DNA from: an uncultured Clostridium sp.
GTDB taxonomy: Bacteria; Bacillota; Clostridia; TANB77; CAG-508
DNA length: 62,765 nucleotides
Direction of reading: 5' to 3'
Assembly (NCBI GenBank): GCA_946545015.1
Contig: CAMNMV010000002.1
Location: 1 to 62,765 of the forward strand
Within the stretch, counting starts at the first letter, position 1. The number at the start of each line of letters is the position of its first letter. Position numbers and translations under genes: made by a program. The notes under the pieces were generated by a model. The model did not search any database. It had not been told where the DNA came from and saw only the letters and a list, made by a program, of their open reading frames with translations. Shown here in pieces: positions 14,380-47,916 of this stretch.

Positions 14380-14426
14380 AGATTTCAACTTTAATATAAA
14401 TCAATAAAAAAGAAAGGATGTTTAAA

Positions 14427-15038: not shown

Positions 15039-15045
15039 TGTTAGA

Positions 15046-15913: not shown

Positions 15914-16063
15914 CACCTCATAAGTTTTATTATTAATTATATGTGAAAACGTAATAAATGTTTCAAAAAATATAAAAAAATATGAAAAAATACGATATTT
16001 AATAAAATAAAAATAATATAAAACCTGTTTTACATAAAAAGTTAATAAATTTTTCCAAAAGTG

Positions 16064-16092
16064 TTGAAAAATGACTAAAAACAGTGTATAAT
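16064..16092 (+). promoter_or_regulatory. Consensus sigma-A promoter upstream of giant gene A1
   Basis: TTGAAA, 17 nt, TATAAT with an extended TGn. It predicts a ~180-nt 5' leader. A second weaker candidate (TTGACT, 16 nt, TATTAT) lies near 16216. Confidence 0.55.
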
Positions 16093-16276
16093 ATAAGTTA
16101 GGGTCAGTATGCAAATTGTGTGTAATATAAATGACATAAAAAATTAAACAAAATGTCAAAAAAACGGGAGAAATACTTCCGTAAAAGCATACAGTAGCAT
16201 CAAAAAAAGTATATTGACTTCTTTATAAAAAAATATATTATTATATTAAGTAATAAATTTTAAGGAGGAAAAATTT

Positions 16277-19200: not shown

Positions 19201-21070
19201 AGCAGCATTAAAACTTACACTTTCAAATAATATTTCAAATGAAGAAGGAATAGAAGCTGGTAAAGTATTTGCAAATACATTAAGTGTTAAAAATACTTCT
19301 AATGGAAAATTAGAAAATATAACAGTAAATATGGCGATTCCAGAAGGATTCGAAGTATTTGAAATATATGAAATTGGAAATAGTAAAAACTTTACTATTA
19401 TAAGAAAAGATAATACTGCAGTTACATTTAATATAAATGAACTAGCAGCTGGTGCAACAAAAGATATGGTTGTATCATTAAAAACAGTAGAAACAAGTAA
19501 AACAACAAAAGCATTAAAATATTCAGCAACAGTTAATCAACAAACATATTATTCTAATGAAGTAAAAGTTGGAATAAGAGAAAAAGTTGAATCAAAAATA
19601 GAAGCAACTCAAACAGCAAATATTGATGAAGAAGTAGTAGAGACAGGAGATAAATTAAACTATACATTTAAAATTAAAAATACTTCTGAATGTAAAGATA
19701 CAATTACATTTAAAGATACAGTACCAAAAGGAGCTGTTATCAAAAATGTATACTATACAAAAAATGATGAACAAGTAAAAATAGAAAAAGTAACAAACAA
19801 TATGATTTTAGCAGTAATTGAAATAGAACCAGGAGAAGAAATAGACTTAGTTGTAGAAACAGAAATTGATGAATCAAAAACAGGTTCAGAAGAAATAACA
19901 AATTATGCAACAATATCTGGTGAATTATTACCACAAGAAGTAAAAACAAGTTCAATTACATATAAACTAAAAAATAATATTAAACCAGTAAAACCAAATG
20001 ATCCGGATGACCCAGATGATCCAGATGTACCAACAATACCAGGTGAAAAAGATTCTAAATTTACAATTTCTGGTACAGCTTGGATAGATGCAAATAAAGA
20101 TGGTATTAGAGATGAAAAAGAAAAAGTGCTACCAGGAATTAAAGTATCACTTGCTAATACTGAAGAAGGATTTGTTAAAGATTCTAAAGGAAATAAAATC
20201 GAATCTGTAACAGATGCTAAAGGACAATATAAATTTACAGAAATACCAAAAGGTAAATATATTGTAGTATTTGCTTATGACAATGTTAAATATAGAAATA
20301 CAGAATATAGAGCAAAAGCTGCAACAGAAAAAACAAATTCAGATATCATAACAAGTAAAATAGCTCAAGAAGATGGAATTAAATATGGATTAACAGATAC
20401 ATTAGAAATAAGTAAAGAAAGTCTTGAAAATATAGATGCTGGATTTATTGAAAACGAAATATTTGATTTAAGTTTAAATAAATCAATTACTAAAGTAACA
20501 GTACAAAATTCAACTGGAACACAAGTAAAACAATATAATAAAGAACAATTAGCAAAACTTGAAATTGACAGCAAAACATTAGCAGGATCTACAGTACTTG
20601 TAGAATATACAATAGAAGTTAAAAACGAAGGTGAAATTGCAGGTTATGCAAATGAATTAGTAGATTATATGCCAAGAGACTTAACATTTAATTCAGAAAT
20701 AAACAAAGATTGGTATAAATCAACAGATGGAAATCTACATTCAACAGCATTATCTAAAGAATTAATTGAACCAGGACAAACTGTAGCAGTTACATTAACA
20801 TTAGTTAAAACAATGACTGAAGCAAATACTGGTTTAACATCAAATAAAGCAGAAATTGCAAAATCAAGCAATGATTACTTAATACCAGATAAAGATTCAA
20901 AAGCTGGAAATACAGCACAAGGAGAAGACGATATGAGTACAGCAGAATTAATTGTATCAATTAGAACTGGTGTAGGATATACAATAGGAGTTATAACAAC
21001 AATGGTTGTTATAGCCACTGCAGGAACAATAGTCTTCATAAAGAAGAGAAAGGAGGCAAGCCATGAGTAA
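16277..21070 (+). CDS. Giant surface protein, A-type (module 1): DUF11-like repeats, SdrD-B-like unit, C-terminal SIRTG + TM + KKRKE
   Basis: Contains a signal peptide (LILCLTATNFIFAAVNTVYA) and DUF11-like units (GQVIRYSYVIKNTSENAIENV, GDKLNYTFKIKNTSE). PDPDP and DPDDPDDPD linkers precede ISGTAWIDANKDGIRD...GKYIVVF. The C-terminus is a TM anchor. Confidence 0.85.
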   Translation: MEGKLLRKLIAFVLILCLTATNFIFAAVNTVYAISASSELEGGNIVFEAYFKQDETKVIDKTAYVSEGADLYINLAIKAGKLQNASIKIDNANFKIEKDKVDSKYVKGINTDTNEILLNEIGYSDGQAGSVEIKLPVKFEEAQRIDLSYFSMENSITLSGHYINSSENGKDIKSDPIKTRLTWSESSISYNWVPTVEKIVSADNKTIVQVSINSILDKLYLPKESETVTINVPKVGNVTPSYTVLVNGEKLDISKINDDFANQKISFTNNFVDGNSILWDKSGDTYKVIYVYDNTDYLEKPLEFKTQVTTKVYNREAKTSNEMKMASNKPQGTIASVTATSLSNEVYKGYMYANSAETLYTEKYDLELSYTDTVATFKFAEDNFTTESQERKITNGKTVYKELKINKANLVNVLGTTGSLKIVDKNIIVNSNTQADKDGNIVIKTDDAHILKLDLISAENEGTIKIFATKAIQGNAGYDKETLKSINAIETTVKASTDLDQEVSTATARTELKETTTEATLVMNNNNILSTTTANDIEFLATLKTGTMDTDLLKAPTLKLILPEDVDQVTIKSVSALYAEEKLNVADQQVVEEEGRKVILVKLDGEQLSYDNKFIEGIKVTINTEITLKEGTTSKDDVITMKYTNENSTEKEFETPIKVSIQAPYGLMTTATANAEFEGKTADETISAQAINNYGKVIENLSFIGNMPTVEKSKEDFENSIKDSFKATIGETVVDANSITIKYSKDGKEWTDDIEDAKQYKIVLGENTKLNATEKFEVAYTIEVSQVITGHKIAYTLDGMEKVDELKEKVTVKGLEIPDSEPDPDPTPVEPVVNEDGLSVTMTAASANKTITKDDELTAGQVIRYSYVIKNTSENAIENVKFEAEHTNTNVFEYKTDKQTNTIKPDEEISFTFEKEADGKSTVEKQIGTLEAGKEIKLTYQARVKENANKVESTVVVTGKDVEEIKIESANDVKSAALKLTLSNNISNEEGIEAGKVFANTLSVKNTSNGKLENITVNMAIPEGFEVFEIYEIGNSKNFTIIRKDNTAVTFNINELAAGATKDMVVSLKTVETSKTTKALKYSATVNQQTYYSNEVKVGIREKVESKIEATQTANIDEEVVETGDKLNYTFKIKNTSECKDTITFKDTVPKGAVIKNVYYTKNDEQVKIEKVTNNMILAVIEIEPGEEIDLVVETEIDESKTGSEEITNYATISGELLPQEVKTSSITYKLKNNIKPVKPNDPDDPDDPDVPTIPGEKDSKFTISGTAWIDANKDGIRDEKEKVLPGIKVSLANTEEGFVKDSKGNKIESVTDAKGQYKFTEIPKGKYIVVFAYDNVKYRNTEYRAKAATEKTNSDIITSKIAQEDGIKYGLTDTLEISKESLENIDAGFIENEIFDLSLNKSITKVTVQNSTGTQVKQYNKEQLAKLEIDSKTLAGSTVLVEYTIEVKNEGEIAGYANELVDYMPRDLTFNSEINKDWYKSTDGNLHSTALSKELIEPGQTVAVTLTLVKTMTEANTGLTSNKAEIAKSSNDYLIPDKDSKAGNTAQGEDDMSTAELIVSIRTGVGYTIGVITTMVVIATAGTIVFIKKRKEASHE
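20957..21067 (+). other. A1 C-terminal sorting-signal-like tripartite tail
   Basis: SIRTG, then a 23-aa hydrophobic segment, then KKRKEASHE. Confidence 0.5.
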
Positions 21071-24000: not shown

Positions 24001-25727
24001 AAAGATTAGGTAGTCCAACTACTAAATATGCAAAAGCAGAAATAAAAACAGATATGGAAATTCCTAGAACAGCTGAAGGAAATTCAAAAGAAATATATGT
24101 AAAATTTGATTTATCAAAAGAACAAATTGGATCAATTCTTGAAAATGGTGAAATCTTAGACAATGTTGTAGAAGTTTCATCATACACAGTAAAACAAGAT
24201 GGAAAATTATATGCATCATTTGACGAACACTCAATACCAAATAATGCTAATCCAGAACTACCAGCTGAATTTGAAGATGATACAGATAATGCACCAGGAT
24301 TAAAATTAGATCCAAAAGATGACAGAACAATGTCAGGTGTTGTATTTGAAGATAATGCAATTTCAGAAGGTGCTGGAAGTGTAAGAAAAGGTAATGGAGC
24401 ATATGATGAAGGTGAAACAACAGTTTCAGACGTAGCAGTAAAACTTATTGAAACTGACAAAGAAGGAAATGTTAAAGAAGACGGAAAAACATATGATGCA
24501 ACAGGAAAAACAACTGCAGATGGTAAATTCACGGTATCTGGATATGTACCAGGATATTATAAATTAATGTATGTATGGGGTAAAAATTCTGAAGGTAAAT
24601 ATGACGTAAATGATTACAAAGGAACAATTTATATCCCAAGAGATACAAGCAAGATGGATTGGTATAAAAATGATAACAGATATTCTGATGCAATGGACAA
24701 TTATGATTTAAGACTTGCAATTGACAGTGGAGATACATCAGTATATAGTGATTTAACAAAAATGGAATCTTCAACAGAAACTTTCGGTATAGGTATAGAA
24801 TATGGTGCTGGAACACCAGGTGATAACATCATAACAATATCTGAAGGAGATAAATTCGTAAGATGTGATGTTTCAACAATGGATTTCGGTATTATAGAAA
24901 GAGCTAGACAAGCATTAAGAATAGACAAAAAAGTTAATTCAGTTAAAGTAACAACACCAGATGGTTCAACATTAGTAGATGCAATTGTAAATGATGAAGG
25001 AAAACTTGAAGGAGCTGCTGGACAAGAATTAAAATATATAACAGGTGGAAGGGATCTTGGATTCTATAAAGTTGAAATGGATGATGATTTAATACAAGAT
25101 TCAAAAGCTAATGTAGGTTATAATATCATAATTACAAATATAAGTGAAATTGATTATGACTCAAAAGAATATTACTTATATGGTGAAGAAAAAGGTAATA
25201 TAATCACATTACAAGCAACTAAGATATTTGATTATCTAAAAGGTGCAGAACTTGACCCTAATAAAGAAGATGACAAATGGGAAATAGTTGATTTAGATAG
25301 AGTAAGAGAAATGAATTCAGCAGTAGTAAAAGATAGAACAGTTATGGAATACTTAAAAGATAATCTAACAAGAGAAATAAGTCCATTAGACGCTACAACA
25401 TCTGAAACAATCTATGTTTTAAAACCATTAACATTAAGTGGTGAAATTGCTATAGATAATAATGCAGAAATTACTAATATAGTAATTGGTGGAACACCTG
25501 TAGATGATGAAGGAAATGCAACAGGACCATCAACAAAATTCAAAACAGCAAGAAAACCAGACTTAGCAAATAGTACATTATTTGCAGTAGCAGAAACAGT
25601 TACAGTAACAAAACCTACTGGTGAAAACAGAGATTATACAGTTATAATAATTAGTAGTATAGCAGCAATTGCAGTATTAGGAGCAGGAGTTATTGTAATA
25701 AAGAAAAAAGTTTTAAATAATAAATAA
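21063..25727 (+). CDS. Giant surface protein, B-type (module 1): SpaA/Cna-B-like units, SdrD-B-like unit, C-terminal KPTGEN sorting signal
   Basis: The ATG overlaps the A1 stop (ATGAGTAA), with aaggagg 6 nt upstream. The protein has a signal anchor and prealbumin-fold-like units (LPVGRYKIYETSIPDE, VPVGDYLVYETN). Other landmarks are SGKVWEDVPEQRKNDN and FGIIERARQ. Confidence 0.85.
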   Translation: MSKIDIFKSIKNLTIVGIILVLIVGLLSSMTTASTVNEAGTVGDLINCTYDDSWYEFDPSSEVGRGVTAGTNIPTDKPGGYCVDPHTYYAGTYKVVNIIDINNNTTANTVKVYGEGGFEKEYSFSNPNVRPYLMLAYLADKGRNEAGVYGNYMANSYKVAMSAIFLNTTYNNQMRNAGLSSYLVPVSYGYGSSSAKLQEAIVEAEKMSKQGSMTAGNITYNPTQEEKDNVSVIPSGDGKYFVGPYRLGITGDCTIEDITINGSIHATGMTTDLEHVKTLDNIADNQEFYIVINEEVEEFSKIKVKGSETVSQLRSRFLIVSGGASQNFFIYKADSTPAKPEVELEVPKYGTIQILKKDSIKDSNLKLENIGFMVWSVNKQAYIIENKEGKIEYVDFKTAKANEFKTDAEGKTKVIKNLPVGRYKIYETSIPDELKIYYELPEIEMPEKGNKEKVKTNGKLVSNEEDKKDYFDITSGAVVPVIATNIRDFTTLVLEKIDKDTSLPVPGIGFKLFSTIKDKEGWVVVNDKNEVTGTTTVFDEATEFVTGETGLTAKINRVPVGDYLVYETNLGSYEDVYEELKPIRIAGGNTGGLGLYKGTAQVVANENNEFKFTAKNKQVNINISGKVWEDVPEQRKNDNVLNNLYDQDRDRLINGITVKLIDRTTGEVIKETVTKDGGKYRFEKVKYIEEQEDGTDKNLLENYYVEFTYDGVTYQNVVTPENEKDLTRTSKASEKARQAFNDIFTELTGEGQILNGVKLTYTKEGNNVYSNNICDRRTKIDDENRLVNLSTLGDFTITAVTDENYLNKAYAKLAASTTTGTEPVKEITDVDLGLYPRSQSAVMVVKDVHSAKLSINGFNHIYTYGKKSQEFYEKSAEDFNVGVSFKRNMLLNGMNPYLTPVYRSDYRYESDDKSKELKVSVVYKITLINNSANRSLVTKINKIVDSHDIRFTNMEVGTKYDEATGTISDNLEVRELPALQRLGSPTTKYAKAEIKTDMEIPRTAEGNSKEIYVKFDLSKEQIGSILENGEILDNVVEVSSYTVKQDGKLYASFDEHSIPNNANPELPAEFEDDTDNAPGLKLDPKDDRTMSGVVFEDNAISEGAGSVRKGNGAYDEGETTVSDVAVKLIETDKEGNVKEDGKTYDATGKTTADGKFTVSGYVPGYYKLMYVWGKNSEGKYDVNDYKGTIYIPRDTSKMDWYKNDNRYSDAMDNYDLRLAIDSGDTSVYSDLTKMESSTETFGIGIEYGAGTPGDNIITISEGDKFVRCDVSTMDFGIIERARQALRIDKKVNSVKVTTPDGSTLVDAIVNDEGKLEGAAGQELKYITGGRDLGFYKVEMDDDLIQDSKANVGYNIIITNISEIDYDSKEYYLYGEEKGNIITLQATKIFDYLKGAELDPNKEDDKWEIVDLDRVREMNSAVVKDRTVMEYLKDNLTREISPLDATTSETIYVLKPLTLSGEIAIDNNAEITNIVIGGTPVDDEGNATGPSTKFKTARKPDLANSTLFAVAETVTVTKPTGENRDYTVIIISSIAAIAVLGAGVIVIKKKVLNNK
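25611..25724 (+). other. B1 LPXTG-like sorting signal
   Basis: KPTGEN, then a hydrophobic helix, then KKKVLNNK. Confidence 0.55.
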
Positions 25728-25775
25728 ACTTAGAATTAATAGATTAGACTTATAATAAATTTTATATAGAACTTT

Positions 25776-25820
25776 CATAAAGAGCAGGTTATACCTGCTC
25801 TTTATGTTTTGTTGTTTTTT
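25776..25820 (+). terminator. Rho-independent terminator of module 1
   Basis: cataaagagcagg / cctgctctttatg 13-bp stem with a 5-nt loop, followed by a T-rich run. Confidence 0.85.
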
Positions 25821-25840
25821 TACTAAAAAGATAAAATATT

Positions 25841-25854
25841 CTTAGGGAAACAAG
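25841..25854 (+). promoter_or_regulatory. CTTAGGGAAATAAG motif copy (one mismatch)
   Basis: Reads cttagggaaacaag, directly after the module 1 terminator. Confidence 0.5.
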
Positions 25855-25899
25855 TAATTAAGGAAAAATATATGTGAAAATATTAAAAAATAAATCTTA

Positions 25900-25919
25900 A
25901 TATTACAAAAATGTAATGT
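25900..25919. promoter_or_regulatory. Palindromic candidate operator in the module 2 leader
   Basis: ATTACA aaaa TGTAAT is a perfect 6-4-6 palindrome. It aligns with ATATTAC-N6-GTAATAT in the module 3 leader. Confidence 0.45.
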
Positions 25920-25944
25920 AAATTTAAAGTATAGTTAGTAAAAA

Positions 25945-25986
25945 GTGTTTCAAATACTTTCCGTAAAGGTATTTGGGACACTTTTT
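25945..25986 (+). promoter_or_regulatory. Leader hairpin presenting TTCCGTAAAG in its loop, followed by T5
   Basis: gtgtttcaaatac / gtatttgggacac 13-bp stem (two G-U pairs) with an 11-nt loop tttccgtaaag, followed by ttttt. Confidence 0.45.
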
Positions 25987-26093
25987 GTAATATTTACTTA
26001 TATATATAAAAAGCTATATTGAATTAATTTATATATAATAATAAGATAAAATTAAGTAAAAATGTCAAAAGAAAAAGTAGGAGGAACCAACAA

Positions 26094-29000
26094 ATGAAAG
26101 GGAAAATTTTAAAAGTATTATTGGTGTTAATGATTATTGCAAGTATGACATTAATCAATTTTTTACACACAGGAATGTTAATTGCATATGCTGCAGGGGA
26201 AAATGCTGAAGAAAATTCAGTAGAATTTAATGCAACAATAAATACTGAAAATGATTATGAAGGAAAATTAAATATTGGTCAAACAGGAAATCTTTATATT
26301 AACTTAAAAGTTAGTAAAGGTTCATTAAATGATGCTAAAATACAGTTGAAAAACTCAAACTTCAAGATGGGAAAAGCAGATAGTAAATATGTAACTGTAA
26401 ATGACAGTACAAAAACTATTGAATTTAATGCAAATGTCCAATATGGAAATAATATAAAAGTTAAAGTTCCAATTACTTTTGAACAACAATCAATGATTGA
26501 TGAAAATTATTTTAATAGAGATACAACAGTTGAATTAGCTGGTACATATGTAGAAGGCGAGAACAGTTCAAATCTAAATATACAAAAAAACATTAAATTA
26601 GGTTGGGAAGCCAAAGCTGAAACAACTTTATCCACACAAATTGAAAAATATGTGGAAATCAGTGAAGGAAAATACTTAATTGAGCAAAAAGTAACAGCTA
26701 CAACTGTAAATAATATTTTACCAAAACAATCTGAAAAAGTTGAAATAACATATGGTGGAGAAAATGATAAATTTCCAAGTGAAATTGTAGTTTTGAAAAA
26801 TGGAAAAAAATTAGATGGAAGTAAAGTAACAAAGGATGAAACAAATAGAAAAATAGTAATAACAACAATGAATGATGTATCTACAGGAAAAGTATTATGG
26901 GATGAAGGAAAAGATATATACAAAGTGATTTATATACTTGAAGAAGAACAACCAAAAACAAGTATTTTATTAAATACTTTAGTTAGCACAAAATTTTATA
27001 ATAGCGAAGAATTAGTAGAAAAAGCAGATAATAAAAATGATAAAGCACAAGAATTAAGAATAAAAGGAGAAATAATAACAACAGAAGCTGAAGGAACAAA
27101 AGAACAATATAAAGGTTATATGTATTATGCAAAAGCCAATGAAACATTATATAGCCAAAAATATAGCATTGAAGTTTCAAATGTTGCAAATGAACAAGTA
27201 ATAAACTTTGAACAAAATGGTGAAGATTTTATTAGAGGAGACGGTAAAAAGCTAGAAACAAATAATTCTACATATTTCAAAAATATATCATTAAGCAAAG
27301 AAAATATAAATAATGTTTTAGGAAATAATGGACACATTGATTTAATATGTGATGGAGTAACATATAGAATTAATGCTAATCAAGAAGCAAATGAAAATGG
27401 ATATATCGTATTTGGAATAGATGAAAATAATTCTAGATTTAGTGAATTAAAATTAACGACAAGTAAAGTAATCAATGAAGGTGTACTAGATATATTAGTT
27501 GATAAAGTAGTAGCTGGAAATACTTCATATAGCAAAGAAGAATTAAAACAAATTGCTAAAATCGAAACAAATGTAAAAGTGCAAGATCAAGAAGTAAGAA
27601 CACAAACACAATTGTTAGATACAGTAGAACCATCTGCTAAATTAACAATTGAAAATGATGTAATTTCCACAATTAATCAAGAAAATAATAATGTAAAAAT
27701 GTATGTAACATTAAATACTTCTTCAAACAAATATGATTTATACAAAAATCCACAAATAGTAGTAACATTACCAAGAGAAGTAGAAGAATTTAATTTTGTG
27801 CATAATGAATTATATGCAGAAGGATTTAGATTAACAAATGAACCTAAATTACAAGTAAATGCTGATGGAACAAAATGTATAATGTTTACTTTTGAGGGTG
27901 AACAAGCAAACTATGGAAACAATGCAGTTGAAGGATTAGTAATTGAAATAAGTGGTAATATTAGACTAAATAAATTGACTCCAAAAATGACTAAACAAAT
28001 TAGTATGACATATTCAAACGAAAATAAAAATTACCAAACATATGAGAAAAAAGCAGATATAAAAATTGTTTCAAAAGAAGGAATATTAACATATACACAA
28101 GTAAAAGGTTATAACGAAGCTGGAGAGACTATTGAAACAATGAGTAATGAACTAGCTGAAGGTACTCTTGATATGGATGCTGAATCTAGAAATGTAAGAG
28201 TAAATATGGCAGTTATAAATAATTACGACAAAAATGTAACTAATGCATTTATATTAGGAAAATTAAAAACAACATATGAAGGAGAAATAACTTCTCCTAT
28301 ACAAATAAGTGGTTTAGAAGGTGCAAAAGTACTTTATAGTACAAATGTTGAAGAAGAAGTAAATAGTAAAAATTGGACAGAAAATTACGAAGGTGCTAAA
28401 GCTTATAAAATTATACTTCCAAATGGACAATTAAAAAGTGGACAAATTATGGGATTTGCTTATAACTTTAATGTGCCAGAAAACTTAGAATATAACGAAA
28501 TAGCAAATGCGGGATATCAATTTAATTATAAATATGATGATATAAATAATAAAATTTCTTCAGTATTCAAATTAGCAACAGAAGAAAAGACATTAACAAA
28601 TCAATTAAAAAGAATAGCAAGAAATAGTAATAAAACATCTAATATTTATAGTGTTAGTGAAGGGGTAAAATTAGATGTTAAAGCTATATCTGCATTAAAT
28701 GAATTAAATGATGGTGATACAGTAAAAGAAGGACAAACAATTAGATATGAAGTTACAGTTAAAAACAATTCACAAGAAGATATTGAAAACTTAAAATTAA
28801 CAGCAAGACATACAAATGCGATATTCTTTGTTGAAAAGAAAGAAGAAAATGTATTTGGCGTAACAAATGGTATACCATATAATACATATATTGATGAAGA
28901 TGAATCAGTAGAAAAATTAGAATTTGAATTAGAAAGATTAGGTGCAGGAGAAGAAAAAACATTTGAATATGAATTTTCTGTAAAAGAAATAGAAGGAGAA

Positions 29001-31166
29001 AATGAAACAACACAAGGTACTTTAACAGTAGAAGCATCTGGAATAGATACTAAACAAATATCAACAATATCAAACAACATAGAAAGCTCAAGATTAAAAT
29101 TATTAATTAGAAATAATCAATCAGAAGATCTTCCGATTACAACTGATGATTATATACCAGTAGTATTAATATTAAAAAACATATTTAATAGTGATTTACA
29201 AAATGTAATAGTTGAAATGAAATTACCTGAAGGAAGTAATGTAAATATTAATGATTTAAATGAAGCAAAAGAAATATATCCAGATTTAAATTGGGATTTA
29301 GTAAATTATGATAAAGATACTAATATTATAAAATTTAAAATACCTAATATGACAGGAAAAAATGGAGAACATGAAGGAGAAACTGTTAATATTGGTTTTC
29401 CAATAATGTTTACTGATATTCCTGTAACTAGTGGTAATATTCCGATTGATATCTATTATGAAGCATATTTAGAGAGTGCTCCAGAAAAAAGATATATTTC
29501 TAATGAAATAAGAAAAGAAGTACTTCAGTTAAAAGCTGATGCTACTATTGAACAAACTACTTCATTAGAAGAAAATACAGTGTTAACAGAAGATGATGAT
29601 GGAAAAGAAATAACTTTTAGAGCAAAAATAACTAATACAGGTGTAACAGATTTTGTCGCAACAATAACAGATATGTTACCACATGGATATAAAGTAGACG
29701 AAGTATATATTGTTAAAAATGGAGAAAAAATCCAATATGAATTTGATAAAAGTTTACAAGATATTTCTATTGAAAGAGAATTAAAAACTCAAGAGTCAAT
29801 AGAGGTTTTTATAAAGACGATTTTTAGAATAAGTGATGTTAGAACTAGAACACCTAAAAATTTATTTTTAGTTAATGGACCAGGGTTAAGTAAAGAATCA
29901 AATGAAATTAAATGGGAAGTAGATTTGGGAGAAAATCCGGATTATATAAATGAAAGCATTACAAAAGAAGATGAAGTAGAAGAAAAAGATATAGATGTGA
30001 TTCAAGAAGAAACAAATGAAAACGATACTATCAAACCAATATCTACTGATGATGAGAGAGAACATAATAATGAAGAAAATGAAAATTTGAATGATGATCC
30101 AAATGGAAATGGTGAAAATAAAGATGATGAAAATAATAAAGAGAAGAGAACGATAACAGGAAAGGTCTGGTTAGATCAAAATAAAAATGGACAACGAGAC
30201 AATAACGAAAAAGGTATTGCAAAAGTAAAAGTTTTATTAGTAGATGCAAAAACAGGAGATGTTATTAAAAATGATAAAGATGAAAAAATTGCTGTTATCA
30301 CATCTGATGATGGAACTTATAAATTAGAAGGAATTGAAAAAGGTGAATATGTAGTTGTTTGTGATTTTGATACAAATAAATATAGAATAACAGATTATCA
30401 AAAAGAAGGAATAGATGAAAGCGAAAATTCAGATATGATAATCAAAGAAGCGGGAATAGGAACAGAAACGAAGAAAGTCGGAGTAACTAATAAAATTACA
30501 GTAGAAGACAATAATTACGAAAATATTGATATGGGATTAATTGAAAATGAAATATTTGATATGTCTTTAGAAAAATATGTAAGTAAAATTATTGTACAAA
30601 ATGCTCAAGGAACTATTGTTAAAGAATTTTCGAAAGCACAATTAGCTAAAGTAGAGATAGATAGAAAACAATTGGCAAATTCAGTAGTAACAATAGAATA
30701 TACATTAAATATTGCTAATGAAGGTGAAATATCTGGATATGCTGGAGACATTATTGATTATATGCCAAAAGATTTAGTGTTTGATCAAAATTCAAATACT
30801 GGATGGGTATTAGAAAGTGATGGAAACCTACATAATACTACTTTAGAAAATGAAGAATTAAAGCCAGGAACAGTAAAAACATTAAAATTAACATTAACTA
30901 AAACAATGAATGAAAATAATACTGGAACAGTAATAAATACAGCAGAAATTGGAAAAGCAACTAATGAATACGAAATTAAAGATATAGATTCAACTCCAGA
31001 TAATGGAGTACAAAAAGAAGATGATATGAGTACAGCAGAAGTAATTATATCAATTAGAACTGGTGAAGTATTAATTAGTGTAACAATTATTTTATCAATT
31101 GCAATATTAATTGCAATCGCGATTATACTAAAGAAAAGAAAGGAGGGGGAAAATGAAAAAGAATAA
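26094..31166 (+). CDS. Giant surface protein, A-type (module 2)
   Basis: Same architecture as A1. It has a signal peptide, DUF11-like units (GQTIRYEVTVKNNSQEDIENL, KEITFRAKITNTGVTD) and an acidic linker. ITGKVWLDQNKNGQRD and a conserved terminal domain follow. The protein ends EDDMSTAEVIISIRTG + TM + KKRKEGENEKE. Confidence 0.85.
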   Translation: MKGKILKVLLVLMIIASMTLINFLHTGMLIAYAAGENAEENSVEFNATINTENDYEGKLNIGQTGNLYINLKVSKGSLNDAKIQLKNSNFKMGKADSKYVTVNDSTKTIEFNANVQYGNNIKVKVPITFEQQSMIDENYFNRDTTVELAGTYVEGENSSNLNIQKNIKLGWEAKAETTLSTQIEKYVEISEGKYLIEQKVTATTVNNILPKQSEKVEITYGGENDKFPSEIVVLKNGKKLDGSKVTKDETNRKIVITTMNDVSTGKVLWDEGKDIYKVIYILEEEQPKTSILLNTLVSTKFYNSEELVEKADNKNDKAQELRIKGEIITTEAEGTKEQYKGYMYYAKANETLYSQKYSIEVSNVANEQVINFEQNGEDFIRGDGKKLETNNSTYFKNISLSKENINNVLGNNGHIDLICDGVTYRINANQEANENGYIVFGIDENNSRFSELKLTTSKVINEGVLDILVDKVVAGNTSYSKEELKQIAKIETNVKVQDQEVRTQTQLLDTVEPSAKLTIENDVISTINQENNNVKMYVTLNTSSNKYDLYKNPQIVVTLPREVEEFNFVHNELYAEGFRLTNEPKLQVNADGTKCIMFTFEGEQANYGNNAVEGLVIEISGNIRLNKLTPKMTKQISMTYSNENKNYQTYEKKADIKIVSKEGILTYTQVKGYNEAGETIETMSNELAEGTLDMDAESRNVRVNMAVINNYDKNVTNAFILGKLKTTYEGEITSPIQISGLEGAKVLYSTNVEEEVNSKNWTENYEGAKAYKIILPNGQLKSGQIMGFAYNFNVPENLEYNEIANAGYQFNYKYDDINNKISSVFKLATEEKTLTNQLKRIARNSNKTSNIYSVSEGVKLDVKAISALNELNDGDTVKEGQTIRYEVTVKNNSQEDIENLKLTARHTNAIFFVEKKEENVFGVTNGIPYNTYIDEDESVEKLEFELERLGAGEEKTFEYEFSVKEIEGENETTQGTLTVEASGIDTKQISTISNNIESSRLKLLIRNNQSEDLPITTDDYIPVVLILKNIFNSDLQNVIVEMKLPEGSNVNINDLNEAKEIYPDLNWDLVNYDKDTNIIKFKIPNMTGKNGEHEGETVNIGFPIMFTDIPVTSGNIPIDIYYEAYLESAPEKRYISNEIRKEVLQLKADATIEQTTSLEENTVLTEDDDGKEITFRAKITNTGVTDFVATITDMLPHGYKVDEVYIVKNGEKIQYEFDKSLQDISIERELKTQESIEVFIKTIFRISDVRTRTPKNLFLVNGPGLSKESNEIKWEVDLGENPDYINESITKEDEVEEKDIDVIQEETNENDTIKPISTDDEREHNNEENENLNDDPNGNGENKDDENNKEKRTITGKVWLDQNKNGQRDNNEKGIAKVKVLLVDAKTGDVIKNDKDEKIAVITSDDGTYKLEGIEKGEYVVVCDFDTNKYRITDYQKEGIDESENSDMIIKEAGIGTETKKVGVTNKITVEDNNYENIDMGLIENEIFDMSLEKYVSKIIVQNAQGTIVKEFSKAQLAKVEIDRKQLANSVVTIEYTLNIANEGEISGYAGDIIDYMPKDLVFDQNSNTGWVLESDGNLHNTTLENEELKPGTVKTLKLTLTKTMNENNTGTVINTAEIGKATNEYEIKDIDSTPDNGVQKEDDMSTAEVIISIRTGEVLISVTIILSIAILIAIAIILKKRKEGENEKE
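31050..31163 (+). other. A2 C-terminal sorting-signal-like tripartite tail
   Basis: SIRTG, then a hydrophobic helix, then KKRKEGENEKE. Confidence 0.5.
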
Positions 31167-34100
31167 GCAAGACTATTCTATAAAATATAAAATTATTTTT
31201 TGCCTAATATTTTTAATAGGAATAATATTAGCAATAGTAACTCAAGTAAAAGCAGGATTATTAACTGGTAGTTATGATTTTACAGGAAATGGATACATTA
31301 CTGAATTTGATTTTGGATGGGCAGCAAGAAATGACTATGATAAATTTTATAATTATGATTCGTCTTTAGATATGAGTTCTAGTAATTTGATTGGAAAATC
31401 AGTATATATGAATGTTGGATCTTTTGGCGAATGGGGAGCTTCTATAGAACAAAATAATTGTTTTTGTATAGGACATGGTACATCTCAGGCTATTCCTGGA
31501 TATAATCAGAATCAACCAACTTATAGAATAGAAACTATATGGGATACTGATATGGATGACAATACTCCTCCTGGAACATCTGATATATATATATATAATA
31601 ATTCAGGAACGGTATCAAGCTATAAGAATAGGTATATTGACAATAATGCTGGATATGCTTTAGCTAAATGGGCTGTTATAGCAAAAGAGACACAAGGTCA
31701 AACTTACAATTATCAAGCATTTTATAATGGACAGACTATAGGAAATTATTTAAATAAAGTAAAATCAATGGCTATTTCACCATATATTAAAATTGATGAT
31801 AATTTTGGATTTACAGAAGATGCTAATATGGTAGAATATGCAAATAGATTGCGTAATTATAATTTTGCTGAAGCAAAATTGAATGAAGCTAAAGGAGTAA
31901 ACAAAGTAAATGGAAAAATATATTTAGGACCATTTGGTATAAATGCTTCAAAAGATGAAAATGGAAAAGATAATATTTCTAAAGTTGTTGCTACAGTTAA
32001 TGGGGCTACAACGCAGATATTGGGATTTTCATCTACTAAAGGTGGAAGTTTATATCAAGCATATAATCAAATACCTTGTGACGGAAGTAAATTTTATGTG
32101 GTTATAAATAATATAGAAGATATTAATGGACTAAAATTTAAAATTACTATAACCAAAAGTATACAAGTAATAAGAGCAAGGACATTTTTCTTTAGACATG
32201 GTGGCTATACTACTAATGGACAAAACCTTATTGTGTATAGAGGGGATTTAAAACTTAAAGAAGATAAATTAGAATTAGTAGTTACAGGTGAAGAGGATGA
32301 AGAAGAATCAACAGGTATTCTTTCTATAATCAAAGAAGATGAATATACTAAAGAACTGCTTGGAGGAGCTAAATTTGTTGTTCAAAATTCTAAAACAAGA
32401 AAATACGTTAAAGCACAAAAAGAGACATCAAGCGGAAATGCAAATGTATTTAAATTTACTGGATATGTAAACAAATTAGATGAGGCTACTAAATTTTATA
32501 CTGACAATGGACATGGCATATTTAGATTGACAGGTTTAGAAGAAGGAAATTATCATATAACAGAAATTGAGAAGCCAGCAGGTTATTTGAAAGAAGAAAA
32601 TGAAGTTGATGTATATGTATATTCTGAGAAAAAATTGGAAGAAATATATAATTCTAATAATACAGGGTATGCTATTAAAGCTATGCTAGATGATAATAGA
32701 GAGTATCCAGAAATGTATAAGATTTTAAATGCTTTATTAGGAAGAAATTATAGTAATAATGATGAAATTTTTAATGCTGCACAAACAATAAAAGCAGCTT
32801 ATAACCAAGAAAAAGCAAAAAAAGGTTATGACAAAATGACTAAAGAGGAAAAAAATATATTCAATATTAATTTTGTAACGAATAAATTTGCAGATTATAA
32901 TATTGAGTATTCTGGATTGACTTCAATAAAGTTAAAGAATATAAAAAATCAAAATGAAGATACTAAAAAGAAATATATCGAAAATGTTTATGAAAAGTTA
33001 ATTAATTCAAAAATTAAAACTGGATTACATTATTTTTATTCAGAGAGAATGATAGGAAATGCGTCACAAATTATATATAATAAAATGAGTGGTAGAGCAA
33101 GAGTATATAAAGTTTCTCAAGATAATTCGATTGTGAAGTTAAAAGGAGCAAAATTTAAAATTCAAACACCATACTTATCATATTTAGTAGCTACAAAAGA
33201 TAGTAATGGCATATATAATGTTACAGGTACAAATGCAACAGGAACAATATTTGAAACTAATGATAATGGATATTTTGAAGTTAGAGGAATGGAGGAAGGT
33301 GGAGACTATTCTATAGAAGAAATAGAAGCGCCTGAAGGATATAAATTTATTGATACAAGTTCAAAGACTTTATATGTATATTCATATAATAGATTTTCAA
33401 ATGAAGATAATATAAAAAGAGCATTTAAACAAATGTTTACAAGTGTTAATTTGAATTCTAGTAAATATAGTAGTGAAGGGTATGCAATTTTAAAATCATT
33501 ATTATTAAATGATAATGCAACTGATTCACATTTAACAAATGAAAATGATATAGATACTATAGTTGATTATGTATTAACAAATAAAAAGAATACTATTGTT
33601 ACTTTATTAGATCATAATTATACTATTAATCAAATTATGAATGATGTAGCAGCTAACGCAAAGAGTGGAGGAAATAATACTGTTCTAGAAGAATATTTTG
33701 CACAAGTATATAGTAAATATTCTGGACAAAAAAGAAAAAGAGAAAATGCATATAATATTATGTATGCTACAAAAGCTTTAGGATATGATAGTAATGTTGT
33801 AGTAAATCCACTTGAAGATCAAAATGGTAATATAGTTATTTATAAGACAGATAAAAAAGATGAAACAAAGAAATTATCTGGTGCTACATTTAAAATTGAA
33901 AAAATGAGATTTGTTACTGTAATTGGCGGAAATAATAATCCAGTATACTTAAAAGCAACAAAGAAAAGTGATGGTATTTATGATGCAAGTGATACTTCAA
34001 ATCTTACAGATGAATTTGTAACAAATTCAAATGGATATATTCAAATTAAAAATATTCCTATAACTTCATCTGTACGTGAAATTTATGAAGTTGTAGAAGT

Positions 34101-37100
34101 ACAAGCACCATATGGATATAATATTAGTACAAGTAGTTCAAAAACTATAACTGTACAAAAAGAAGAAGCAAATAAAGGTTGGGAATTAAAAGATTTAACA
34201 AAAGCATTGGCAACTATGATATGGAATACTAAATCTAGTGATTCATCAACAATAAATGTTGTAGACATAGTTGATGCAGTTCAAGGCAATTCTCTTAATT
34301 CAGCAGTTATAGCAAATGAACTAATGAGTAAACTAGGAAAATCAAAAGTTACGACATATGATGAAATATATGATGTTATAGAATATGTAATAGAAGAAAA
34401 TCAAAGTTATGTTGTAGTAACAGTTGATAGTAGTGAAAAATATTTGTATAAGAGACACCAAAACTCTGCAATTAGCATGATTGATGCAATTCAAGCAATT
34501 AAACAAAATAAGAAAATTGGCGGTACATCAGTTAGTGATGGAAAAAAATATTTAAAAAATTATATAGCACAAGTTTATAATAAATTTACAGGAAAGAATA
34601 GAGATACTGAAAGTTTATATAATTTAAAATATTATAGTATAGCTTGTGGTTCAAGTGCTGAAACTTTTGCGAACAGTAAAGATGTAAAATTGAAAGTTAA
34701 GAAGACAGATTACAAGACAGGAAAAGGAATTAATGGAATTAAGTTTGCAATACAAAATACAGAAACTGGCAAATATCTAAAGAAACAAAATGATGGAACA
34801 TTTACATTTAGTGATACTCAATATTTATTTACAACTGCTAAAGTTGAAGGTGATGATGGAATTATATTATTAGAAGATGTTCCAGAAGCTACATATAAAG
34901 TAATAGAAATAAATACAGGTAATACAGGATATGAATTACCAGAATATGGAGATGATCGCTCATTATTAGTAAGCAGAGATTCTAAAACTAAAAAAATAAC
35001 TTCTATGTATGAATCAATACATATAGAAAATGGTATAAAAGAATTTCCTATGGAAAATGTTAAACCTAAAACTAGAAAATATCCACCAGTAACAGTTACG
35101 AAACAATTAAAAGTATCTGGAAAAGTATGGAAAGATATACCTACAGAACTTAAAGATAGAAATGTTAGAGATGATATTTATGGATCAAATGATCAATTAT
35201 TTGCAGGGGTTCCGGTTTCACTTGTACAAGATAGTAAAACAGTTGCAACTACTGCAACAAAAGCAAATGGCACATATACTTTGAATTTTGATTTAACAGA
35301 TGTAATTAAAAAAGTAAATAATGATAAAGAGGTAAAGAAGGCTAAAGAAGAAGCTGATAACTTCGAAGCAAGGGATTATACAGATGAAATAGCAAGATAT
35401 AATGAATACATTGAATACTATAAAGCTGATCTTAAAGCTGTTTCACAATATCCAAATCCAGAGTTAGTAAGACGTAGAACTATAATTGATAATGAAGCAA
35501 TATCAAAATATACAAATAGAATAAATGAATTAATTACAAGAATTCATGATGAGGATACATATCATGAAAATCTATGTAAAGTATATGAAGCTTTATTTAA
35601 TGAAAAATATAATCAATATTTATTAGAAGAACTAGGAAAATCTAAGATTATATTTAGATATAATGGTTTAGATTATACAAATGTTTTATTAAATAAAGGA
35701 AGTATTGATGAAGGTACATCATCTCTTGCAGCAGAAATACCAGACGAGAGAACTGAATTGAATACCGATTTTGGTACAGTTACAGGGGATTCTGAACAAA
35801 AAATTAGAGATAAGAAAATTGAATATGAGTTTTCTGAAGAATATGTAAATGTTAAAGAAAATGATACAATGAAGATAAATGCATATACAGCTGCAGCTAC
35901 ATTGAAAAATAGATATAATTCATTAAGTAATAAATCAAATAATGTAACTGAAATTACTAATATAAATTTAGGTGTATATGTAAGATCTAGACCAGACTTA
36001 TCACTTAGAAAAGATGTATATAGTGCTGAAATAACAATGGACGGAAAAGCATATACATATGTATATGGTAAAAAAGATGGGGAAGAATTAACAACAATTG
36101 GTGCTGCATTCGAAAGAAACATGATGTTAAGAGAAGATGATAAGTATCTTGCACCAGTATATAGAGCAGATGTTCAAGATGCAGGACATAATAATTTTAC
36201 TATGAAAGTAACATATAGAATTGCTGTTATAAATAATAGCCCTGTATTATATAATAAAGTTACAAAATTAGAAGATTATTATTCATCAAGATATAAGATT
36301 GATGCAGTTTATACAGGAACTAAAACTCAAAAAGGTGCAAAAATCAAAAATTTAACAGATTCTACTAATACTGTTGAAAAACATGTTACAATAGATGGAT
36401 TAAATTTAAGAATACCAAATTCAAAATCACCTGAAGGTAATGCTAAATATATATATGTAGATTTCTATGTAAATCCTATAAGCTTGGATATGTTTGATAC
36501 AGATTTAGAACTACATAATACAGCTGAAATATCAAATTATTCAACATATAGTAATGATGGTTATACTGAATTTTATGGTGGATTTGATATCGACTCTGTG
36601 CCAAATAACTATAAGAAAACATACAAAAATCACGATGCTAGAAGAGAAGATGATGTTGATGGCGCACCTGGATTAAAAATTACAGAAGCCACTCCAAGAA
36701 AGTTACAAGGAACAGTATTTTTAGATGAAGATATTGATGGAATAACAGGAACAGGTAAAGAAAGATTAGGTGACGGTATATTTAATTCCTCTAAAGAACA
36801 AGGAATAGCAGGTGCTGAAGTTATATTAGAGGATACAAAAAATGGAAATAAATTTACTGTTCGTACAGATGATGCAGGAAAATATACATTTAGTGATTTT
36901 CCTGTAGGAACATATACTTTAACATATAAATGGGGAAATAAAACATATAATCCATTGTATTATAAATCAACAATTATCAACAAAGGATTTAATCCAACTG
37001 ATAAAATAAACTGGTATCAAAATATAGATCCTAATAAAGCTTATTCAGTAGCTATTGATGACGAAGAAACAAGAATGAATATTGATAAGAATAGTACTAC

Positions 37101-38280
37101 TAGATATAAAGATATGCTACAAAATAGTGCTGAAGCAGTAGAAACTATGACTTCAAAGGCAATTCAAGATGTTGAAGTAGAAATGTTGTTGAGAGATAAA
37201 AATAAAGTAAAATATGAAGTAAAAAATATTAATTTTGGTATAATTGAAAGACCAAGACAATCTATGAAAATAACTAAAAATATATCACACATAAAAGTAA
37301 TGGATGATTATGGAACTGTTATTGATGAATCAGATATTGAAAATGGAAAATTAACAGCAGAGAAAATGAACTTTACAGTTTATATTCCAAAAGGACAAGC
37401 ACTAAATCCATATGGACAAGTAAAAACTGAATTAGACAAAGAATATTTACCAGCTAAAGTTGAAGCAACTTATGAAATAAAAGTTGAAAACAGAAGTGAA
37501 CAAGATTACTTCAAAAAAAATGAAAGTGGATTATCAGAATATTATAAATATGGAACAAAAGGTGTTGCAGGCGAATCACCTGTAAAATTACAAGCGACAG
37601 GTGTAATGGATTATGCAAGCTCAGCATTTGTTATAAGTGATATTAAAGAGGATAACGGAAATGTAATATCAGCTGATGATTATTTGATTGAAGATAAAGA
37701 TTATTATAAGAAAGTTGCTGAAACTACAGGAGTAGAATACCAAGATAATAAAACATATACAACAGTTATTGAAAAAGCTTATCAAAAACTTATAGAAACA
37801 ATTGGTAAAGATTCTTCAAAGATTTTAACATATGAATGGGCAACAGATGAACAAACAATAAGAGGAATATTCTCACAATGGTGTGATGAAAAAATTGATA
37901 CTGAAGAAAAAGCAAGAACAAATAAATTAAGTCAAAATAAAATCTTAGAATTAAAATGCTTAGAAGGTGCAGAGTTAGCTGCAGGTTATGCTAAAGCAGT
38001 TACAATCAAAGGTTCAATACCTGTAACTTCATTAAATAGTGATGTATTATTACAAAACCAAGCTGAAATACTTAATATTGATAAAACATCAACATTTGGT
38101 CATAAATCATATGAAACATATACAACATTGTATGATCAAGGTGAAGAAGTTAAAGTAATACCACCTACTGGTGAAAATAAAGATAATTCAGATATGATTA
38201 TAATTGCAATATCATCAATAGTTGGATTATTAGTAATAGGAATTGGAATAATATTTATCAGAAAAAAGGTTTTAAGATAA
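31153..38280 (+). CDS. Giant surface protein, B-type (module 2), with three helical inserts between SpaA/Cna-B-like units
   Basis: The ATG overlaps the A2 3' end by 14 nt, with aaggagg 6 nt upstream. Prealbumin-fold-like units include GNYHITEIEKPAGY, GDYSIEEIEAPEGY, YEVVEVQAPYGY and ATYKVIEINTGNTGY. Other landmarks are SGKVWKDIP and FGIIERPRQ. The C-terminus reads PPTGEN + TM + RKKVLR. Confidence 0.85.
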   Translation: MKKNKQDYSIKYKIIFCLIFLIGIILAIVTQVKAGLLTGSYDFTGNGYITEFDFGWAARNDYDKFYNYDSSLDMSSSNLIGKSVYMNVGSFGEWGASIEQNNCFCIGHGTSQAIPGYNQNQPTYRIETIWDTDMDDNTPPGTSDIYIYNNSGTVSSYKNRYIDNNAGYALAKWAVIAKETQGQTYNYQAFYNGQTIGNYLNKVKSMAISPYIKIDDNFGFTEDANMVEYANRLRNYNFAEAKLNEAKGVNKVNGKIYLGPFGINASKDENGKDNISKVVATVNGATTQILGFSSTKGGSLYQAYNQIPCDGSKFYVVINNIEDINGLKFKITITKSIQVIRARTFFFRHGGYTTNGQNLIVYRGDLKLKEDKLELVVTGEEDEEESTGILSIIKEDEYTKELLGGAKFVVQNSKTRKYVKAQKETSSGNANVFKFTGYVNKLDEATKFYTDNGHGIFRLTGLEEGNYHITEIEKPAGYLKEENEVDVYVYSEKKLEEIYNSNNTGYAIKAMLDDNREYPEMYKILNALLGRNYSNNDEIFNAAQTIKAAYNQEKAKKGYDKMTKEEKNIFNINFVTNKFADYNIEYSGLTSIKLKNIKNQNEDTKKKYIENVYEKLINSKIKTGLHYFYSERMIGNASQIIYNKMSGRARVYKVSQDNSIVKLKGAKFKIQTPYLSYLVATKDSNGIYNVTGTNATGTIFETNDNGYFEVRGMEEGGDYSIEEIEAPEGYKFIDTSSKTLYVYSYNRFSNEDNIKRAFKQMFTSVNLNSSKYSSEGYAILKSLLLNDNATDSHLTNENDIDTIVDYVLTNKKNTIVTLLDHNYTINQIMNDVAANAKSGGNNTVLEEYFAQVYSKYSGQKRKRENAYNIMYATKALGYDSNVVVNPLEDQNGNIVIYKTDKKDETKKLSGATFKIEKMRFVTVIGGNNNPVYLKATKKSDGIYDASDTSNLTDEFVTNSNGYIQIKNIPITSSVREIYEVVEVQAPYGYNISTSSSKTITVQKEEANKGWELKDLTKALATMIWNTKSSDSSTINVVDIVDAVQGNSLNSAVIANELMSKLGKSKVTTYDEIYDVIEYVIEENQSYVVVTVDSSEKYLYKRHQNSAISMIDAIQAIKQNKKIGGTSVSDGKKYLKNYIAQVYNKFTGKNRDTESLYNLKYYSIACGSSAETFANSKDVKLKVKKTDYKTGKGINGIKFAIQNTETGKYLKKQNDGTFTFSDTQYLFTTAKVEGDDGIILLEDVPEATYKVIEINTGNTGYELPEYGDDRSLLVSRDSKTKKITSMYESIHIENGIKEFPMENVKPKTRKYPPVTVTKQLKVSGKVWKDIPTELKDRNVRDDIYGSNDQLFAGVPVSLVQDSKTVATTATKANGTYTLNFDLTDVIKKVNNDKEVKKAKEEADNFEARDYTDEIARYNEYIEYYKADLKAVSQYPNPELVRRRTIIDNEAISKYTNRINELITRIHDEDTYHENLCKVYEALFNEKYNQYLLEELGKSKIIFRYNGLDYTNVLLNKGSIDEGTSSLAAEIPDERTELNTDFGTVTGDSEQKIRDKKIEYEFSEEYVNVKENDTMKINAYTAAATLKNRYNSLSNKSNNVTEITNINLGVYVRSRPDLSLRKDVYSAEITMDGKAYTYVYGKKDGEELTTIGAAFERNMMLREDDKYLAPVYRADVQDAGHNNFTMKVTYRIAVINNSPVLYNKVTKLEDYYSSRYKIDAVYTGTKTQKGAKIKNLTDSTNTVEKHVTIDGLNLRIPNSKSPEGNAKYIYVDFYVNPISLDMFDTDLELHNTAEISNYSTYSNDGYTEFYGGFDIDSVPNNYKKTYKNHDARREDDVDGAPGLKITEATPRKLQGTVFLDEDIDGITGTGKERLGDGIFNSSKEQGIAGAEVILEDTKNGNKFTVRTDDAGKYTFSDFPVGTYTLTYKWGNKTYNPLYYKSTIINKGFNPTDKINWYQNIDPNKAYSVAIDDEETRMNIDKNSTTRYKDMLQNSAEAVETMTSKAIQDVEVEMLLRDKNKVKYEVKNINFGIIERPRQSMKITKNISHIKVMDDYGTVIDESDIENGKLTAEKMNFTVYIPKGQALNPYGQVKTELDKEYLPAKVEATYEIKVENRSEQDYFKKNESGLSEYYKYGTKGVAGESPVKLQATGVMDYASSAFVISDIKEDNGNVISADDYLIEDKDYYKKVAETTGVEYQDNKTYTTVIEKAYQKLIETIGKDSSKILTYEWATDEQTIRGIFSQWCDEKIDTEEKARTNKLSQNKILELKCLEGAELAAGYAKAVTIKGSIPVTSLNSDVLLQNQAEILNIDKTSTFGHKSYETYTTLYDQGEEVKVIPPTGENKDNSDMIIIAISSIVGLLVIGIGIIFIRKKVLR
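38161..38277 (+). other. B2 LPXTG-like sorting signal
   Basis: IPPTGEN, then a hydrophobic helix, then RKKVLR. Confidence 0.55.
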
Positions 38281-38285
38281 AATTT

Positions 38286-38321
38286 AAAAGAAAGTAGAAA
38301 TTAAATTCTACTTTCTTTTTT
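38286..38321 (+). terminator. Rho-independent terminator of module 2
   Basis: gaaagtagaa / ttctactttc 10-bp stem (extendable by A-T pairs), followed by tttttt. Confidence 0.8.
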
Positions 38322-38335
38322 CTTAGGGAAATAAG
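38322..38335 (+). promoter_or_regulatory. CTTAGGGAAATAAG motif copy (exact)
   Basis: Exact 14-mer abutting the T-run of the module 2 terminator. Confidence 0.5.
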
Positions 38336-38379
38336 GCAAAAAGAGAAAAATTGAAAAAATTCAGTTTCAAAATTTAGAA

Positions 38380-38399
38380 ATATTACAAAAAAGTAATAT
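38380..38399. promoter_or_regulatory. Palindromic candidate operator in the module 3 leader
   Basis: ATATTAC aaaaaa GTAATAT is a perfect 7-6-7 palindrome. Confidence 0.45.
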
Positions 38400-38571
38400 A
38401 AACTTAAAATAAGATTACAAAAAATTAGAAAAATAGCTTCCGTAAAGGGATTTTGAATGATGCTTGTAATATTTACTATTATAGTAATATAGAGGGGTTG
38501 ATTAATTTTTTTCAAAATAATAATATAAAATCAAGTGTAAATGCTTAAAAAATAAGTAGGAGGAAACAAAA

Positions 38572-47916: not shown

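Follow-up and report, generated by a model that had tools for sequence, protein, structure and literature searches.

Paralogous C-terminal tails with and without a motif proline on paired adhesin-like surface proteins of an uncultured Clostridium sp.

A cassette of paired large genes and its two tail types

The stretch of DNA analyzed here (hereinafter referred to as the window) covers positions 1 to 62,765 of contig CAMNMV010000002.1 from the assembly of an uncultured Clostridium sp. (GCA_946545015.1) and has a G+C content of approximately 27%. Downstream of a row of housekeeping genes, including radC, mreB, mreC, mreD, a PBP2-type transpeptidase gene, and minC, five very large open reading frames (ORFs) were found on the plus strand. 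They encode large proteins of two types, referred to as A and B, in the order A1, B1, A2, B2, and an A3-B3 fusion (Table 1). The two types are distinguished by their C-terminal tails, in which a short motif, SI[RS]TG in A and [PK]PTGEN in B, is followed by a hydrophobic helix and a basic cluster. These tails, and the way in which they may hold the proteins in the cell envelope, are the subject of this analysis.

The domains assigned by Pfam were CLIPPER/DUF11, DUF7507, and SdrD_B in the A proteins, and SpaA prealbumin-like and SdrD_B/CarboxypepD_reg-like domains in the B proteins. DUF11 (PF01345), recently renamed CLIPPER, is a CnaA-like isopeptide domain typical of the stalks of fibrillar adhesins (PMC12617251). 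In A1, a signal peptide was followed by an N-terminal region of about 800 amino acids (aa) without assignment, CLIPPER/DUF11 and DUF7507 repeats, SdrD_B, a terminal CLIPPER domain, and the A-type tail. Scores above gathering were obtained for SdrD_B and DUF11 in A1 (48.7 and 38.7 bits) and A2 (43.0 and 31.4 bits), and for SdrD_B and SpaA in B2 (31.0 and 121.9 bits). The SdrD_B match of B1 was sub-threshold (21.5 bits), yet the region was homologous by hhalign. In a Pfam scan, the N-terminal 350-870 aa of either protein type gave nothing above noise, and comparison of the full-length window proteins with NCBIfam and Pfam recovered stalk domains only and no anchor model. A basic and then hydrophobic stretch corresponding to a secretion signal was recognized, by inspection only, at every N-terminus of the large proteins. 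B2 exceeds B1 in length by about 800 aa, and the segments between its SpaA stretches match no family.

Six tail strings had been quoted in the original prediction, three for each type. Translation of the intervals 20957-21067, 31050-31163, and 42718 onward (A) and 25611-25724, 38161-38277, and 47788-47913 (B) matched all six exactly. The tripartite layout of motif, about 20 hydrophobic residues, and terminal basic tail was present in A1, A2, B1, B2, and B3. It was not present in A3, the tail of which is internal. The tail starting at 42718 had been listed as a third A terminus, but NTKFK is not followed by a stop codon, and this tail is therefore no C-terminus: the frame continues through a second hydrophobic segment, which resembles the signal that B proteins carry at their N-terminus, into the B3 ectodomain, so that A3 reads in frame into B3.

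Table 1. Genes, tails, and membrane-proximal module of the cassette (window positions; TM, transmembrane)
Feature	Position	Strand	Description
A1 gene	16277..21070	+	1597 aa; from ORF listing and Pfam
A1 membrane-proximal module	19967..21067	+	SdrD_B-like domain, CLIPPER, hinge, TM, and basic tail; aligned to the B module by hhalign
A1 tail	20957..21067	+	SIRTG 20957-20971; TM helix VGYTIGVITTMVVIATAGTIVFI 20972-21040; basic tail KKRKEASHE 21041-21067
B1 gene	21063..25727	+	1554 aa; SpaA prealbumin-like and SdrD_B-like domains, B-type tail
B1 tail	25608..25724	+	T-K-P-T-G-E-N-R-D linker, TM, KKKVLNNK; minority xxPTG variant, Pro at motif position 3 instead of 2
A2 gene	26094..31166	+	1690 aa; A-type tail
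A2 tail	31050-31163	+	SIRTG, TM, KKRKEGENEKE
B2 gene	31153..38280	+	2375 aa; five SpaA-domain stretches, B-type tail
B2 tail	38158-38277	+	IPPTGEN, TM, RKKVLR
A3-B3 in-frame fusion gene	38572..47916	+	3114 aa; single ORF
A3 internal A-type tail	42718..42891	+	SISTG 42718-42732; TM1 42733-42798; basic loop NTKFKIFDKLK 42799-42831; B-type signal-like TM2 and SQTESSA 42832-42891
B3 tail	47785..47913	+	TPPTGEN, KDN spacer, TM, KKKVLGANK

The ATG of B1 overlaps the stop codon of A1 by 8 nt, and the overlap between A2 and B2 is 14 nt. A gap of ≤25 nt between A and B was found in all 43 unique junctions, 10 of which overlap. In-frame A-B fusions were also identified in other metagenome-assembled genomes (MAGs; loci L014-L090), with 25 distinct junctions. 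The fusion proteins are approximately 2200-3200 aa long and carry three TM helices, the hinge and TM helix of A being kept internally, and, at hinge position -2, S, G, or E predominates in them over R or K. Since the A hinge is kept internally in these 25 junctions, a C-terminal position is not needed for its conservation. The A3-B3 junction itself is no assembly slip, because it was reproduced in independent data: 42500-43100 was covered without differences by a 12.6-kb gut-metagenome contig, and 42749-42899 was reproduced exactly by a separate goat-gut run from 2025. Assembly error as the origin of the fusion was ruled out by these independent-run junctions together with the fusion junctions elsewhere. 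Many unrelated metagenome contigs stack up at 42800-42870 of the window (word depth ≤514, versus about 23 alongside), where the apparent coverage is inflated.

Among GTDB species representatives, 78 distinct loci carried the cassette, with one to three A-then-B modules per genome. The relatives were MAGs from rabbit, goat, buffalo, chicken, mouse, and human gut, including Clostridium sp. CAG:440. A profile of the B C-terminus matched 2784 clusters (50% identity) at E ≤1e-30; the best 150 of these 2784 clusters all had E <1e-144, and most of them covered the whole profile at the protein C-terminus. Both tail types, with the same dichotomy, were found in hundreds of homologues from other genomes, and the recurrence of the two types is far beyond chance. 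Loss of the motifs in orthologues had been named in the original prediction as a point that would speak against it; both were kept, in 152 unique A tails and 251 unique B tails.

Conservation was counted on a KK-anchored logo of these unique tails. The consensus of the A tails was E-[ND]-D-x-[SG]-x-A-[DE]-[VL]-I-[IL]-S-[IV]-[RKS]-T-G, followed directly by a TM helix of about 23 residues and then by KKK. Thr of the motif was kept in 143 of the 152 tails, and Gly in 152/152, partly by construction because the tails were anchored on Gly. Position -3, which is the position of Pro in B, was occupied by I, V, L, T, or M, and by Pro in none of the 152. The TM helix of A was conserved in composition only. 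In more distant A relatives (P0099-P0114), a short polar spacer followed TG, as in sorting signals.

For the B tails, the consensus was A-E-T-V-I-[VI]-T-P-[PNAS]-T-G-E-N-x-[ND]-Y, then the TM helix, then I-K-K-K-V-L. Pro of the motif was retained in 201 of the 251 tails (80%), Thr in 232 (92%), and Gly in 237, and the spacing from the hinge Gly to KK was 27 residues in 222/243 tails. TPPTG, TPNTG, TPATG, TPSTG, VPPTG, and IPPTG were the most frequent five-mers, and a minority group with xxPTG, to which TKPTG of B1 belongs, made up about 8%. Thr was replaced by F, L, M, or P in 8/251 (about 3%), as in VPPFG and LPPFG. Further, the TM helix and the cytoplasmic end of B were kept residue by residue (..L-G-x-G-[IV]-[IV]-x-I-K-K-K-V-L; I in 248/251 and G in 245/251). 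The conservation of this part, which corresponds to 25650-25724, 38200-38277, and 47830-47913 of the window, exceeded that of most of the ectodomain.

Common origin and predicted structure of the two bases

Profiles of the C-terminal ~370 aa of A and ~500 aa of B were aligned with each other by hhalign with a probability of 99.8% (E 1.9e-28, 330 columns), and approximately the last 340 aa of A and 500 aa of B are paralogous. Because the alignment extends from the SdrD_B-like domain through the CLIPPER domain to the tail, the A and B tails descend from one C-terminal unit. SIRTG was aligned residue for residue on TKPTG, with a 3-residue insertion in B after TGEN, and the A motif is the B motif with Ile or Val replacing Pro. 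Two distinct signals had been proposed in the original prediction. The two tail types are real, but they are homologous copies of one module and not unrelated classes; since the tails are paralogues, the framing as two distinct classes was wrong.

The AlphaFold2 model of the A1 membrane-proximal module had a predicted local distance difference test score (pLDDT) of 89.5, with 76 in the hinge block. Its last strand comprised residues 323-333 (MSTAELIVSIR), T334-G335 were the sole non-regular residues, and a helix followed at 336-366. Because the strand ends at R333, S-I-R is placed by the model in the folded immunoglobulin-like (Ig-like) domain, with only T-G before the membrane helix. In the model of the B1 module, the strand 458-462 ended at T462 and was followed by a coil (463-470, KPTGENRD) and a helix from 471; this model was weak, with a pLDDT of 64 overall and below 50 in the linker. 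At this low confidence, it agrees with the possibility that Pro breaks the strand and exposes the B motif. The best Foldseek matches of the A module were the sortase-anchored pilins SpaD, BcpA, RrgB, and EbpC, as well as SdrD. Neither tail module had a real match when compared by sequence with the PDB.

Anchor models, related systems, and enzyme searches

The tails were scanned alone with TIGR01167 (LPXTG_anchor, NCBIfam), for which the curated cutoff is 15.9 bits. In the window, A and B tails scored alike and all below this cutoff (B2, 14.9; B3, 14.4; A2, 13.5; A3, 12.8 bits), and the tails of A1 and B1 (TKPTG) had no match. Among homologues, three of five B-type tails passed (24.9, 21.6, and 19.0 bits) and none of five A-type tails did. 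The LPXTG-class design that had been proposed for the B tail is supported by these family members, and the B tails can be classified, as far as the motif layout indicates, as LPXTG-class signals. The best scores of the window tails with x-CTERM models were 14.9 bits for Loki-CTERM (cutoff 19.9) and 10.4 bits for PEF-CTERM (cutoff 23).

The tails resemble the LPXTG signal (TIGR01167, PF00746) in the T-G end of the motif, the short acidic/polar spacer (TGEN..Y), the TM helix of about 22 residues, and the Lys-rich end. They differ from it in position 1, which is T, V, or I instead of L, in the Pro of B1, which is at position 3 only, and in the lack of Pro in A. Non-canonical motifs with Pro, to which the original prediction had appealed, do have precedents: Clostridioides difficile SrtB cleaves the T-G bond of (S/P)PXTG but not the proline-less NVQTG (PMC4155245), and Spy0129 of Streptococcus pyogenes accepts (E/Q/V)(V/P)PTG (PMC3019223). 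The B tails share with the SrtB substrates a clostridial xPxTG motif with a first residue other than Leu, although this residue is S/P there and mostly T, V, or I here; the sortase is not encoded beside its substrates in C. difficile, and the present cassettes are likewise without an adjacent sortase gene. The core P-T-G with Pro at position 3, present in the window as TKPTG, IPPTG, and TPPTG, is common to the B tails and the Spy0129 motifs. Spy0129 is encoded in a pilus operon and polymerizes pilins, whereas no adjacent sortase and no YPK motif were found here. Class E sortases use the proline-less LAXTG (PMC8225981), which is similar to the A motif in lacking Pro at position 2; they are actinobacterial, and LAXTG has Ala where A has Ile/Val, and L at position 1.

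With respect to domains, the bases resemble the stalks of Gram-positive pilins and MSCRAMM surface proteins (SpaD, BcpA, RrgB, and the B repeats of SdrD) and CLIPPER/DUF11 adhesins (PMC12617251), in which a CnaB-like and CnaA-like pair of Ig domains is likewise next to the anchor. The difference is that two paralogous bases are found here on two co-encoded, often fused proteins, one of which has lost the Pro of the sorting motif.

No sortase signature was found in the 62.8-kb window, and the Sortase Pfam family was not listed within ±10 kb beyond either window end or around two related loci. A sortase screen was performed on all ORFs of 90 loci using a TLxTC-type pattern and phmmer with Staphylococcus aureus SrtA, and no matches were obtained within ±10 kb of approximately 88 related cassettes (about 1.5 Mb). 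The only positives were two sortases (active sites VTLMTC and VTLFTC) beside an unrelated LPSTG gene of [Clostridium] symbiosum (L007 11682-15683), which constitute a positive control; the remaining matches to the pattern were antisense junk ORFs. Because the flank screen was empty while this control was detected, a dedicated pilus-type sortase is excluded. Other LPXTG proteins, taken as a proxy for a sortase, were not found in the flanks, and the YPK pilin motif (YPKN-type lysine) was absent from all five proteins in a simple string test. A pilus model was ruled out, there being neither an adjacent sortase nor a YPK motif. In addition, no exosortase-, archaeosortase-, or rhombosortase-type enzyme was present among the Pfam-annotated neighbors, and an exosortase-type model was ruled out by hidden Markov model scores and neighbor genes.

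In the loci with inspected flanks (window 9024-16159; L001-L003, L008, L009, L011, and L093), the cassette was directly downstream of radC-mreB-mreC-mreD-PBP2-minC, and neither minD nor minE was seen after minC. Small minus-strand ORFs were present between minC and the cassette, Asn-rich low-complexity ORFs at 15046-16159 among them. A 207-aa ORF at 19-642 of the window consists mostly of Ser/His/Arg repeats of the SHRSS(L/M)SHRS type with a hydrophobic segment at its end. To the right of the window, on the same 191-kb scaffold, a 2721-aa GH94/glycoamylase-type protein is encoded (L091 10973-19138), and to the left (L093 1-4538), genes for a type I restriction subunit, a GmrSD-like nuclease, and a DUF4411/M78 peptidase pair were identified.

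Possible anchoring of the two partners

Each module is a pair of giant surface proteins resembling fibrillar adhesins, translationally coupled and in some cases fused. The two partners share an inherited membrane-proximal base, in which an SdrD_B-like domain and a CLIPPER/DUF11 Ig-like domain are followed by a short hinge with T-G at its end, a single TM helix, and a cytoplasmic tail rich in Lys. The common ancestor of A and B probably ended in a sortase-type signal, and B would keep a working one: its hinge retains Pro ([TVIL]-P-x-T-G, or x-x-P-T-G in B1) and would act as a sortase-type cell-wall sorting signal, at which a sortase encoded elsewhere would cut between T and G and link B to peptidoglycan. 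In A, Pro would have been lost, with S-I-[RKS] absorbed into the last strand and T-G surviving as a hinge. The A tail would then act as a hinge to a permanent membrane anchor of type I, not as a sorting signal, and the Ig-like domain of A would sit directly on the membrane. Of the two options given for A in the original prediction, a second sorting class or a conserved strand before a permanent membrane anchor, the latter is favored by the A1 model, the lack of Pro, and the fusions. Ebh and Embp, giant repetitive adhesins of staphylococci, are likewise held by a C-terminal TM helix instead of LPXTG, as proposed for A; their domains are unrelated to those of A, and they have no paired wall-linked partner.

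We give about an even chance to the reading in which a sortase encoded elsewhere links B to the wall and A remains membrane-anchored. For B, the involvement of a sortase is reasonable but unproven. We infer the split into a membrane-anchored A and a wall-linked B; because none of the inspected sequences (window, flanks, and related loci) yielded a sortase, the wall linkage of B and the predicted placement of the partners in different envelope layers stay conditional. Several results weigh against this reading. In addition to the empty sortase searches in the window, its ±10 kb, and the related cassettes, the B tails of the window fall just under the TIGR01167 cutoff and B1 has no match. The near-invariance of T-G in A exceeds the need of a simple strand end, and the B tails in which Thr is replaced are odd for a cleavage site. 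The sequence of the B TM helix and tail seems more conserved than expected of a segment that is discarded, unlike the TM helix of A, which is proposed to be retained. Finally, the structural models are predictions, the hinge block of A1 being of lower confidence than its module and the B1 model weak.

Some of these results would suit the main rival reading, in which neither tail is processed and both partners permanently span the membrane once, the hinges and the TM helix and tail of B serving heterodimer packing of the stalk bases and helices. The lack of a sortase in the inspected sequences, the conservation of the B TM helix and tail (G-x-G-[IV]-[IV]-x-I-K-K-K-V-L), and the replacement of Thr by F, L, M, or P in some B tails are consistent with this, and paralogous, tightly coupled, and often fused partners fit an obligate 1:1 complex. 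It is less easily reconciled with the full LPXTG-class layout of most B tails, several of which pass the curated model, or with the extent to which they keep Thr and Pro. Moreover, the strict division across hundreds of sequences into B tails with Pro and A tails lacking it argues for different handling of the two, and non-processing of both is considered somewhat unlikely. Cleavage of both tails was judged very unlikely. In that case one tolerant sortase or two sortases would cut after Thr, S[IV][RKS]TG would be a new proline-less motif, and both proteins would be wall-linked. The nearly invariant T-G of A (T in 143/152), its tripartite layout with TIGR01167 scores of 12.8-14.8 bits, close to B, the use of a proline-less motif by class E sortases (PMC8225981), and the polar spacer after TG in more distant A relatives all accord with such cleavage. 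However, S-I-R is inside the last strand of the A1 model, with no linker, Pro at the equivalent position is found in 0/152 A tails, and C. difficile SrtB leaves the proline-less NVQTG uncut (PMC4155245). The A motif is also equally well kept when internal, in the 25 fusion junctions, and the curated model was passed by no A tail.

That the tails are signals for a non-sortase enzyme beside the membrane (exosortase, archaeosortase, rhombosortase, or CPBP-type) seems extremely improbable: no such model reached its cutoff, no candidate was present among the Pfam-annotated neighbors, and in such systems the enzyme gene is normally near, or co-distributed with, many substrates. The points in its favor are that the A motif abuts the TM helix, as in PEP-CTERM/PGF-CTERM signals, that weak sub-threshold matches to Loki-CTERM and PEF-CTERM were obtained, and that the TM helix of B is strongly conserved. 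Going beyond the reading preferred here, the two proteins might form an obligate integrin-like two-chain adhesin with paired bases and TM helices, in which B is linked to the wall by a sortase and A is held in the membrane via its proline-less relic, tying the membrane to the wall; or S[IV][RKS]TG might be a new cleavage signal of an unrecognized transpeptidase. These bolder possibilities are regarded as quite unlikely.

The cassette is widespread in uncultured gut Clostridia, yet unnamed. Its anchors are mostly missed by current annotation because T, V, or I stands first in the motif and the scores are close to the cutoff of the model. With the B tail recognized as LPXTG-class, these large adhesin-like proteins may be included in counts of sortase substrates. 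The A tail would be a natural example of a sorting signal that decayed to a plain membrane hinge while keeping T-G, and it cautions against calling every end of the form xxxTG, TM helix, and KKK a sortase signal. The constant pairing of A and B and the recurrent fusion with three helices point to a two-chain surface structure that was previously undescribed. The interest of the cassette is chiefly in the annotation of the surface proteins of gut Clostridia and in its unusual paired and fused architecture.

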